A program made the position numbers and the translations under genes. A stretch of 64,000 bases of DNA from Candidatus Omnitrophota bacterium (lineage in GTDB: Bacteria; Omnitrophota; Gorgyraeia; Zapsychrales; Zapsychraceae), in contig JBFWOS010000002.1 in NCBI GenBank assembly GCA_050250375.1, positions 77,547 through 141,546 on the forward strand. The letters are read 5' to 3'. Positions 48,549 to 51,500 of the stretch are shown here, piece by piece. Every line of letters starts with the position of its first letter. Positions within the stretch are counted from its first letter, which is position 1. A model generated the notes under the pieces. It did no database searches. It saw nothing but the letters and a program-made list of their open reading frames with translations, and was not told where the DNA came from.

Positions 48549-51500
48549 ATGTTTATTTTTTTTCGTGAGTTATTCACTAAAACTTCGCTGAGAATCTTTG
48601 TCTGGAGCGTAACCTTCTGTTTGCTTTTGGGACAATTTGCGGTCCCCGGAAACCTTTACGCACAGTCCAACATCATGCCTGAACCAGGGATGTTGATTAC
48701 ACAGAGTTCTTCGTTTTCTCCTTCTGTTCTAAAAGGCCTTACAATCCATCCTGACCAACCGTTCCATTTTGATTTCTTTGTTGATAAAGGTGAATCCAGG
48801 GGCAATGATATTGAATTTGAAGCCGAATCACTCAGGCTGATCAAATATTTTATGGCCTCTCTGGCCATTCCGGAGAACGACCTTTGGGTAAATCTTTCTC
48901 CGTATGAGCAGGACCGTATTATTCCCGAAGAGTTTGGGGTGACCGAAATGGGCCGGGACCTTTTGATGCAGGATTATCTGCTCAAACAATTCACGGCATC
49001 GCTCATGTATCCGGAGGAGCAGCTCGGAAAAAGATTCTGGGACCGCGTTTATAAACTGGCCTATCAGAGATACGGAACAACAGATATACCGGCCAACACG
49101 TTTAATAAAGTCTGGATCGTTCCGGACAAGGCCGTTATTTACGAACAGGACAATACGGCCTATGTTGTCGAGAGCCGATTGAAGGTTATGCTCGAGCAGG
49201 ATTACCTGAGTCTGACATCGGGATTCGTTAAATCCGATAAAGTTTCAGAAGTCAACGGACAATCTTTGGACAACATTTCCTCCGAAGTCATAAAAGAAAT
49301 TCTTATTCCGGAGATAGAGCGTGAAGTGAATGAAGGCGAGCATTTCGCCAAGTTGCGGCAAATATATCATTCCCTTATCTTAGCCACCTGGTATAAGGAA
49401 AATATACGACAAAGTCTCATTAATCAGATCTATTCCGATCAGAACAAGATGGAAGGGATCAATCTCGAGGATAAAGATATAAAGATGAGTATTTACAATC
49501 AGTACCTCGAGGCATTTAAGAAAGGGGTTTATAATTATATCCGGGAAGATTATGACCGGTATAAAAACCAGGTTGTTCCTAGACAATATTTTTCAGGCGG
49601 GATGAAGATCAAGCCGGTGATTACTAAAGCCAAAGCGATTAATACAACGGTATTCTCGGGAGATATGGCCATGATTTCAGCCAGATTTGACCTGGCCGGC
49701 GGCGGTAAGATTATTGATCAGAAATCTAATGCCGTTGATCAGGCGCAAAACGGTGAAACAAAAAAACAAGTTTCATCGACGTTGGCCGGAATGAACGAAT
49801 TATATGCCGCCATCATGGGGCAGATGTGGGATCCGTTGACACTCAACAAATTTTCTCAAAAGAAACTCGCCGATGTTGGCCGGGTCCGGAATGAGGAATG
49901 GAAACAAAGAGGATATGACCGTTTCCGGTCTCTGCCGGCTCAATTGATGCTTTATACCTGGTATGATGCCCAGGAAAGTAAGGTGCTCAAGTTCGAAGAA
50001 AATTTAACGGCCGTGATTAATCATGCATCGGATGAAGAAAAACTCAAGGCTCATTGGGCCCGTGGAATAAAAACCCTGTATCATTTGAGATTTCAGGGAA
50101 ACCATCCTGAGAGCTTTGAGCGGGCATATTTAGATCATTATTTCTTACAGCAATCAATTCATCAATATGTTGCTCGTCTCATTAATCATGACGCCGAAAC
50201 CATTCCCATGGAATATCTGTGGGGATTGGTGGCCATGCTCGATCCGATGGTCTATCACCCGCATTTTTTAAAAGAAGACTGGGGAAATGATGCCGCCCTG
50301 GCCATACCTTCGGGGGAAGCCAGGTTGATTATGCAAAAGAAGGCCGCCGACCTCATGCTTTCTTTATTTGAAAAATTTGATCAGGAAAAATTAACCCGTC
50401 TTTTAGAAAGGGCCTTTCGTGTAACGCCGGAAGAATGGGATCAGGCGGGTTACCGTTTACCGTATGTTGATTTTGCGGACGATAAGAACGGGTTTTTCTT
50501 TTTGTTTCAAAAAATTGAAGTCGATCCAGATAACACGCAAGACCAGATATTTTTGTTGGCCAGATCCAGGGAATACCTCGAAAAACATGTGACCTTTGCC
50601 GATGCCGGTGCGAAGACCGAAAAAAATGGTTTATTCCCGGACAGCCGGGCGAAATCCGAATTTACCTCCCCCTCACCGGACGATCCATTAAAACAAAGGA
50701 TCAGAGCCGTCATCGAGAAGTCTGAGAAAGATCATTTATATTATTATCGTCTGGTGTATGGTTCTAAATTTTTCCGTGACACAACCGGGATCACATTTGA
50801 GATTGAACAGCCGCAACCTGTTTACGAAACAAATGATTTTAATGAAATCCGCGACATAGTCATCGCATGGCACAAAAGAGGACTGCAAACGATGTATATG
50901 ACCAAGATGACTGCGAATGGTGAGGTGGATCTAAATACATATTGGAAACATCTAAAACTGTTTTACATTGGCGACCGCGAACATCCTAAATCCATCCTGA
51001 TTGCTGGCACGAATTATCCGAGCGGGAATATATTGCAGATAGAGTTTATGGCTACTGACCCGCAGTTTGAAGGCCGTGGTTATATCAAAAAACTGCTAGC
51101 AACGGTTATCGAGCGGTACCAACGAGATTATGAAATCGGCGGGGTATTTCTTTTTGATGACGTCGACTATTTGAAGGAAATCGGATTTAGACATGAGAAT
51201 GGTGAATACCGTTACAGTTCCCCGGTTACTGTTGAATCGGTCCAACAAAAAGATGAATCCATGGTTGGTGCTGTTAATCATTTTATGGAAGAACGATCTC
51301 ATGAACTGAAACGATTATTCGAACAATCCACAACGGTAACAGCCGATAAAGCCAGATTGTTGTCTTTACAGTGGCGTTCGGCAATGATGAAGACTTGGGA
51401 TGATGGCAAGTCAATTATTCATACGGCCGAGGAACTGGGAGAAATCGGTGCGCGCATGAATGCGTTATGGAAGGAAGCCGGATTCGACCGGTATGGTTCC

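Follow-up and report, generated by a model that had tools for sequence, protein, structure and literature searches.

Does a long protein of an uncultured Omnitrophota bacterium carry an acyltransferase module, and could that module still be at work? The question is posed by a 64,000-nucleotide stretch of Candidatus Omnitrophota DNA (contig JBFWOS010000002.1, positions 77,547 to 141,546), which as a whole is called the window below, and in particular by its positions 50841-51215. In a preliminary description made from the letters alone, these positions had been read as a Gcn5-related N-acetyltransferase (GNAT) domain embedded in a giant protein and bearing a partly degenerate acetyl-CoA motif. 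Translation of 50841-51215 on the plus strand reproduced the peptide quoted there exactly. It lies in frame inside the open reading frame (ORF) 48549..54350 of the plus strand, which encodes 1,933 amino acids (aa), and it corresponds to aa 765-889, so that the range of aa 740-900 given for the domain was correct. The opposite minus strand contains many stop codons. The features on which the argument turns are as follows.

48549..54350, plus strand: whole gene, encoding the 1,933-aa multi-module protein (ORF; more than 3,700 homologues)
50820..51215, plus strand: predicted GNAT-fold module, aa 758-889 (Pfam GNAT clan, PDB profile, AlphaFold2, Foldseek, low nonsynonymous divergence, dN)
51069..51086, plus strand: putative pyrophosphate loop (motif A), E841-G-R-G-Y-I846, followed by K847 (hidden Markov model (HMM) alignments to YjdJ, 1r57 and rice serotonin N-acetyltransferase (SNAT); invariant in three orthologues)

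The stretch very probably adopts the GNAT (Nat/Ivy) fold, a conclusion on which three partly independent tests agreed, and its resemblance to GNATs is more than chance. The preliminary description had named a search devoid of GNATs as the result that would speak against its claim of this fold; GNATs were returned by profile and structure searches alike. The Pfam search of the stretch, a check that it had proposed, matched four GNAT-clan families, all located on this stretch and the sole matches (E ≤ 10) across the 1,933 aa. On a 200-aa excerpt PF00583 scored 22.2 bits (E = 1.7e-4) against a curated cut-off of 20.7, and PF13527, PF17013 and PF13508 matched more weakly, all under their own cut-offs; the Pfam match thus appears borderline but specific. 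NCBIfam gave no match for either the 1,933-aa protein or the GNAT domain. In a profile search of all PDB sequences, for which the domain and its two orthologues served as the query (a single-sequence version was also run), the mini-GNATs YjdJ (5i0c, E = 0.0067) and 1r57/2h5m (E = 0.062) were retrieved, followed by rice SNAT. The YjdJ-like mini-GNAT family's own Pfam profile was absent among the matches at E ≤ 10, and the matches to the PDB entries of YjdJ and 1r57 are weak.

An AlphaFold2 model of aa 750-895, built on a three-sequence alignment, had a mean predicted local distance difference test score (pLDDT) of 74 and a predicted TM score (pTM) of 0.74, and its strand and helix order corresponded to the GNAT topology. 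The secondary structure assigned by DSSP in model numbering (E9-12, H15-27, E51-59, E64-72, E79-87, H93-108, E113-116, H123-128, E132-134, E137-140) gives the order beta1-alpha1-(unmodelled alpha2 region)-beta2-beta3-beta4-alpha3-beta5-alpha4-beta6-beta7. The modelled domain extends about 7 residues further upstream than the start previously given, with beta1 at aa 758 (window 50820); the beta4-alpha3 pattern reads IEFMATDPQFEGRGYIKKLLATVIERY, and the alpha4 pattern reads DVDYLKEIGF. A Foldseek search of the PDB with this model yielded 38 matches at E ≤ 1e-3, and the top 50 were GNATs without exception (50/50, probability 1.00, E from 1e-4). The leading GNATs, which included PanZ/YhhK (4crz, 2k5t), SACOL1063 (5jph), SpeG, a bialaphos-resistance protein and PCAF/GCN5, gave TM scores of 0.55-0.62, and the query TM score (TMq) ranged over 0.43-0.62 across the top matches.

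Some of the results pull the other way and have to be set against the fold assignment. Searched within the whole protein, PF00583 reached E = 0.0024 and 18.5 bits, under the gathering cut-off of 20.7; pLDDT exceeded 70 in just two of the five AlphaFold2 models; and pLDDT was below 50 for alpha1-alpha2, the part of a GNAT that commonly forms the acceptor site, with model residues 28-50 (the alpha2 region) being of low confidence and modelled without a helix. The model is accordingly graded as moderate, not strong. These points, together with the borderline Pfam score, the three sequences that make up the AlphaFold2 alignment, a non-significant hhalign comparison with the canonical GNAT of a paralogue and the lack of sequence relatives among 1.84 billion proteins, could be taken to mean that the stretch holds no GNAT domain and that the motif arose fortuitously in a long protein. 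We consider such a chance resemblance very improbable and largely refuted, as four GNAT-clan Pfam models, two PDB mini-GNATs and the 50/50 top Foldseek matches agree on both fold and register, and the predicted order of secondary-structure elements is that of a GNAT along the full domain, beyond the motif.

In sequence, the module is an orphan: the domain profile, run in a full HMMER scan against 1.84 billion representative proteins, recovered its own cluster only, and a scan of JGI metagenomes with the GNAT alignment found no relatives. Among the 120 listed homologues of the protein, the domain occurs in three, namely P0001 (the same protein), P0002 and P0003, at 78-79% identity, and a tblastn search with all cargo modules, that is, those between the family's shared terminal domains, against 79 family loci from GTDB genomes gave matches to the two orthologues only. 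A recent copying of the module from another GNAT of the family was considered and rejected: the paralogue P0042 possesses a canonical, Pfam-positive GNAT with the loop R-R-K-G-L-A, and hhalign found no similarity between the two.

The conservation of the module nevertheless speaks for a role. Between the protein and its orthologues, encoded at the loci L001 and L002, dN was 0.106-0.112 for the GNAT module vs 0.217-0.227 for the whole protein. As synonymous sites were saturated for most pairs, we relied on dN and on the dN/dS ratio of the closer pair P0002-P0003, which was 0.049 for the module. No other parts of the 1,933-aa protein are as well conserved as the GNAT module and a further module at aa 1276-1470. 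On these substitution values the GNAT module is selectively maintained and is no decaying relic.

What the module may still do depends in the first place on its pyrophosphate loop. In every HMM alignment obtained, E841-G-R-G-Y-I846 was aligned onto the consensus Q/R-x-x-G-x-G/A, which it does not match; the earlier reading of motif A as E-G-R-G-Y-I, with the last Gly replaced, thus held in its register. The alignments to YjdJ, 1r57 and SNAT run ungapped from the 'DP' ahead of the loop through the amphipathic alpha3. We also considered an alternative register, Q839-F-E-G-R-G844, which lies two residues upstream and matches Q-x-x-G-x-G literally. It was rejected, since both the 'DP' and the hydrophobic face of alpha3 align ungapped in the E-G-R-G-Y-I register, and the literal match is probably a coincidence arising from the common Gly at position 2. 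The start of the modelled alpha3 helix at G842 is a point left for the Q839 register.

In the preferred register, G842 and G844 coincide with the conserved glycines of the loop, so that the central Gly and the position 2 Gly are both kept. Most Nat/Ivy families bind the pyrophosphate via these two glycines, with Ser, Thr, Arg or Lys favoured at the helix tip, where bidentate contacts are made (PMC9703596); in the GNAT module, K847 occupies this helix-tip position. Mutation of the G-R-G residues of OgpAT abolishes acetyl-CoA binding (PMC3814719), and the G-R-G core of the loop is identical to those residues. With respect to position 6, Eis of Mycobacterium tuberculosis was found in the PDB sequences to carry R-R-R-G-L-L in the same register, with Leu where the GNAT module has Ile. 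Eis is an active acetyltransferase for which many CoA-bound structures exist. A bulky aliphatic residue is therefore tolerated at position 6, and Ile846 is no proof of inactivity. Around the loop (aa 834-852), all 19 of 19 residues are invariant in the three orthologues vs 77% over the whole domain. Taken together, the sequence of the loop would be compatible with CoA binding. The expression 'partly degenerate acetyl-CoA motif' is hence literally right for E-G-R-G-Y-I, and it is a weaker argument for lost activity than it implied, given the retained G-x-G core and helix-tip Lys, the Leu of Eis and the invariance of the loop.

Our preferred reading, held with about even confidence, is that the GNAT module is still an acyl-CoA-dependent acyltransferase. 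In that case, an acyl-CoA would be bound via the retained G-x-G-x-x-K loop, in the beta4-alpha3 loop and the beta4-beta5 cleft, and the acyl group would be transferred to an amine on an acceptor. Because the protein appears to be exported and acyl-CoA would be needed where it acts, the reaction would be expected to proceed inside or at a partner cell, whether host or prey, not in the medium.

Several considerations weigh against this proposal. Two of the three signature positions of the loop are non-canonical, namely position 1 (Glu841 rather than Gln or Arg) and position 6 (Ile846), and Glu841 brings an acidic residue near the pyrophosphate site. The Tyr of the Y-x-x-x-G-F motif often serves as the general acid in GNATs; in the alignment, the canonical Tyr corresponds to Leu875, and Tyr874 stands one residue before it. 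The Glu/Ile loop and the Leu at the Tyr position would thus argue against catalysis. Outside cells there is no acyl-CoA to draw on, entry into another cell is a proposal only, and the export of the protein is itself deduced from a predicted signal. Finally, only three orthologues exist, and the conservation described above accordingly has little resolving power.

The same deviations at positions 1 and 6 and at the canonical Tyr would suit a pseudoenzyme, in which the GNAT fold was kept and acyl transfer was lost, and which would serve as a sensor of acyl-CoA or another metabolite, as a protein-binding adaptor or as a spacer between the repeats that flank it. We regard this as the main rival reading, serious if doubtful. 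The best structural matches of the module are PanZ/YhhK (4crz, 2k5t), and PanZ/PanM is a CoA-dependent regulator of PanD, a precedent for a non-catalytic GNAT. A second precedent is the pseudo-acetyltransferase of human O-GlcNAcase (hOGA-pAT), a conserved GNAT module in a multidomain protein that lacks acetyl-CoA binding owing to changes in its P-loop, including an acidic residue (PMC3814719). The apparent export of the protein to a compartment without acyl-CoA also fits a pseudoenzyme, and purifying selection fits binding as well as catalysis. However, the G-R-G core that is destroyed in hOGA-pAT is intact here and the whole loop is invariant, Leu at position 6 is tolerated by Eis, and elsewhere in the family catalytic Cys residues are the sole Cys kept, which suggests that the cargo is usually catalytic.

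The altered loop could also be accounted for by a GNAT-fold transferase that uses another donor, such as acyl-acyl carrier protein (acyl-ACP) or aminoacyl-tRNA. The Nat/Ivy fold accommodates such donors, as in acyl-homoserine lactone (AHL) synthases, Fem-type transferases and leucyl/phenylalanyl (L/F)-transferases. The use of CoA vs holo-ACP within this fold has been discussed (PMC9703596). We nonetheless hold this explanation to be unlikely for the module, whose P-loop is non-canonical, yet whose top structural and sequence matches are all small classical acyl-CoA GNATs, none of them of Fem, LuxI or L/F-transferase type, and which at about 130 aa is minimal and has none of the extra elements of those families.

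Since the site proposed for the reaction depends on export, the N-terminus of the protein and its amino acid composition deserve attention.

48549..48662, plus strand: predicted Sec-type signal peptide, aa 1-38, with cleavage L-Y-A38 / Q39 (hydrophobic segment; -3/-1 rule)

The hydrophobic segment at the N-terminus is the sole one in the 1,933-aa protein. The putative cleavage site was placed by the -3/-1 rule, and A38, at position -1, reaches at least 90% conservation among 104 members of the family. The sole cysteine of the protein, C24, lies inside this signal peptide, so that the 1,893 mature residues contain none vs about 17 expected (0.89% Cys in the window's other proteins; P ~4e-8). 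The same scarcity was seen among the 120 listed homologues, 78 of which have no Cys after the signal peptide (median 0%). Where Cys does occur, it falls in functional motifs: the sole two mature Cys residues of P0085 sit in the catalytic motif SCASCTTN of glyceraldehyde-3-phosphate dehydrogenase (GAPDH), and P0076 retains the CxxxCxxC of a radical S-adenosylmethionine (SAM) enzyme. The family thus seems to have had its Cys removed everywhere except where chemistry needs it, and the retention of Cys in catalytic motifs suggests that the cargo modules are generally real enzymes. The depletion suggests that these proteins are translocated through a narrow passage or reside outside the cytoplasm, and with the predicted signal peptide it leads us to infer that the 1,933-aa protein is exported.

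The GNAT module is one of several in this protein, the remainder of which is organized as listed here.

48663..49718, plus strand: family N-terminal domain, aa 39-390 (common to 120/120 listed homologues; 60 invariant columns)
49803..50792, plus strand: repeat module A, aa 419-748, directly 5' of the GNAT module (32% identical to module B)
51339..52373, plus strand: repeat module B, aa 931-1275, 3' of the GNAT module (8-sequence alignment)
52374..52958, plus strand: conserved module, aa 1276-1470 (lowest dN in the protein, 0.103)
53949..54347, plus strand: family C-terminal domain, aa 1801-1933 (common to about 115/120 listed homologues)

More than 3,700 proteins were retrieved with the full-length protein as the query, and in the 120 listed the overlap with it was confined to aa ~30-390 and aa ~1800-1930. 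Every match with a named source and nearly all genome loci were labelled Omnitrophota, the rest Planctomycetales or 'bacterium', and at least 578 family loci were confirmed in GTDB species-representative genomes. The N-terminal domain displays the motifs WVNLSPYE...FNKVWIVP and is 49-72% identical to that of 25 family members; the C-terminal domain has the consensus GGIDLNP..LDLQIKRDG.GVPLP...PVIINI.PV.NLPLLLG. Pfam, NCBIfam and the PDB gave no match for either end domain, and the AlphaFold2 model of the N-terminal one (pLDDT 64) retrieved nothing in Foldseek. Between the end domains, the cargo recognized by Pfam across the family comprises histidine phosphatase, methyltransferases, NUDIX, phosphoglucomutase, phosphoglycerate kinase (PGK), enolase, GAPDH, kinases, HEAT, WD40, receiver and radical SAM domains. 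The 1,933-aa protein is thus a member of an Omnitrophota-specific family with a conserved chassis, consisting of a signal peptide, the N-terminal domain, variable enzyme modules and the C-terminal domain. The family occurs in multiple copies per genome, at least seven loci deriving from the isolate OFTM38 and two copies sharing one SMAG_U7936 contig; within the 64-kb window, no other family copies were found.

Modules A and B represent an internal duplication (~330 aa, 32% identity, E = 9e-58), between the halves of which the GNAT module lies. No Pfam or PDB relative of these repeats was found. In their 8-sequence alignment, His, His-x-Glu, Asp, Trp-Gly and Asp-Pro columns are invariant and could belong to an active site or a metal site. 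For aa 1276-1470, too, Pfam and the PDB gave no match, and a comparison with the methyltransferase domains that Pfam assigns in paralogues gave nothing significant; by eye, and with no tool support, this module resembles the Rossmann fold of a class I methyltransferase with a degenerate glycine motif, IGSAETPQLG. Beyond this module, the middle of the protein shows little conservation. The two orthologues, P0002 and P0003, share 67-70% identity with the whole protein and are syntenic with it (loci L001 and L002). At the junction equivalent to aa ~1472-1498, both contain about 200 aa more, a module that matches NUDIX (PF00293) and is absent in the window protein. Modules are therefore gained or lost even among orthologues that are 70% identical.

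Upstream of the gene, the leader contains elements that would link its expression to cyclic di-GMP (c-di-GMP).

48221..48370, plus strand: c-di-GMP-I riboswitch aptamer in the gene leader (Rfam RF01051)
48427..48458, plus strand: intrinsic-terminator-like hairpin and T tract, a candidate expression platform (11-bp stem, then TTTTTATT)

The aptamer matched RF01051 (clan CL00126) over model positions 1-87 of 87, at 59.9 bits (E = 3e-9; gathering score, 35), and one of its hairpins has 65 nt inserted. It is preceded by a promoter-like site and followed by the terminator-like hairpin, ahead of the ATG at 48549. The orthologous locus L001 also has the aptamer (5580-5731, 60.8 bits), and aptamers of the c-di-GMP-I clan were further found 5' of family members at L019 (7452-7598) and L037 (3690-3840 and 12894-13059). 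As some relatives' aptamers are typed as the 'GGC' variant RF03167 of the same clan, the exact ligand specificity is unsettled. L004 gave only a weak nhmmer match, and no such aptamer was detected in L017 or L079.

The flanking genes, all on the plus strand, are of the common housekeeping type of bacteria: prfA, prmC, murA and trpG/D/C/F precede the large gene, and an M20 peptidase and a PD40 propeller come after it. A family member stands directly downstream of trpF also at L004, L017, L019, L037 and L079, as compared with window positions 47492-54350. At this one position the cargo differs entirely: it is GNAT-like in the window, histidine phosphatase and methyltransferases at L004, WD40 propellers at L017, a protein kinase at L019 and, if the 2,817-aa ORF there is P0101, probably enolase and PGK at L037. 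The genes that flank these members are 50-91% identical across genomes, and for L017 they are 69-91% identical to those of the window, whereas its cargo shares nothing with that of the window. The cargo therefore turns over much faster than its neighbourhood.

As regards the same neighbourhood, the trp genes are split (45130-59085), with trpG-D-C-F upstream and trpB-trpA about 9 kb downstream of the large gene, by similarity to the annotated genes of L001, where the order is the same. Between trpF and trpB lie the riboswitch-led large gene, a zinc-ribbon ORF, the M20 peptidase and the PD40 propeller. The second of these, a 100-aa ORF on the plus strand (54442-54744) directly 3' of the large gene, contains CxxC...CxxC, is zinc-ribbon-like and has weak zinc-ribbon Pfam matches; it is kept after the large gene at L001 and L002 (82-87%) and at L004 (74%). 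It was also considered as a PilZ domain and rejected, as Pfam gave no PilZ and just the weak zinc-ribbon matches.

The predicted signal peptide, the scarcity of Cys, the swappable cargo and the c-di-GMP riboswitch are together compatible with action outside the producer cell. A broader interpretation, which we offer tentatively and consider rather unlikely as a whole, is that the protein is one example of an undescribed enzyme-deploying system of Omnitrophota, in which a Cys-free, Sec-exported scaffold would carry swappable enzyme modules, would in this case be gated by c-di-GMP, and would use the GNAT module as an effector that acylates a host or prey molecule with that cell's own acyl-CoA. 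The preliminary description had raised the idea of a toxin-like enzyme; nothing among the fold, context or locus results points specifically to a toxin.

One more divergent GNAT by itself adds little, as the superfamily is very large. Even so, this is a GNAT fold that escapes sequence search and yet is strongly constrained, and its Glu/Ile loop could be used to test how much of the Q/R-x-x-G-x-G/A motif CoA binding needs. The family context, with thousands of proteins, fixed ends, few Cys, fast cargo turnover and c-di-GMP riboswitches, may be more interesting than the GNAT domain, and it gives testable handles on the purpose of multi-enzyme proteins in uncultured, probably host-dependent Omnitrophota.

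The nearest setting for such a protein is provided by two preprints on the long proteins of this phylum. They describe Omnitrophota proteins of at least 10-20 thousand aa as enzyme domains in series, GNAT, methyltransferase and NUDIX among them (10.1101/2023.11.21.568195; 10.64898/2026.06.07.730766). PF00583 is reported there in 93 of 916 Omnitrophota proteins of at least 10 thousand aa, with a signal peptide or transmembrane helices in 94% (10.64898/2026.06.07.730766), and 'Archaeovorin' and dockerin-type giants are noted to bear GNATs, to contain GGDEF domains and to be followed by PilZ genes (10.1101/2023.11.21.568195). As GNATs are thus catalogued in such proteins, a GNAT inside a large Omnitrophota protein is not new in kind. 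The family of 1-3 thousand aa with shared end domains, its Cys depletion, the riboswitch and the present orphan GNAT were not found in the consulted parts of the two preprints, which is no proof that they are undescribed. The present protein is like the long multi-enzyme proteins in belonging to the same phylum and in having enzyme domains strung along an exported or membrane-associated protein; it is unlike them in that they have at least 10-20 thousand aa and GNATs that pass Pfam thresholds, vs 1.9 thousand aa and an orphan GNAT here.

At the level of the module, PanZ/YhhK (4crz, 2k5t) and SACOL1063 (5jph) are the best structural matches (E ~1e-4, TM ~0.6), with about 130-145 aa and the same order of elements. 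Their identity to the module is 10-12%, and they are free-standing cytoplasmic proteins with canonical CoA loops, unlike this internal module with its E-G-R-G-Y-I. The mini-GNATs of the YjdJ/SACOL2532 type (5i0c, 1r57/2h5m) are the best PDB profile matches and align ungapped across beta2-beta4-alpha3, whereas their loop is a canonical K/G-G-Q-G-I/V-G and their length about 95-100 aa. The C-terminal pseudo-acetyltransferase of human O-GlcNAcase shares with our case a conserved GNAT module in a multidomain protein and a non-consensus P-loop with an acidic residue; in contrast, its G-R-G is replaced by D-P-S and acetyl-CoA binding is lost, while G-R-G is intact in the GNAT module (PMC3814719). 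Eis (5ebv, 3ryo), in turn, has a bulky aliphatic residue at position 6 of the P-loop as the module does, and differs from it as a three-domain hexameric enzyme that has Arg at position 1 and no detectable sequence relation to the module. Being secreted and acetylating host proteins as well as aminoglycosides, Eis offers a precedent for an exported GNAT that acts in another cell.

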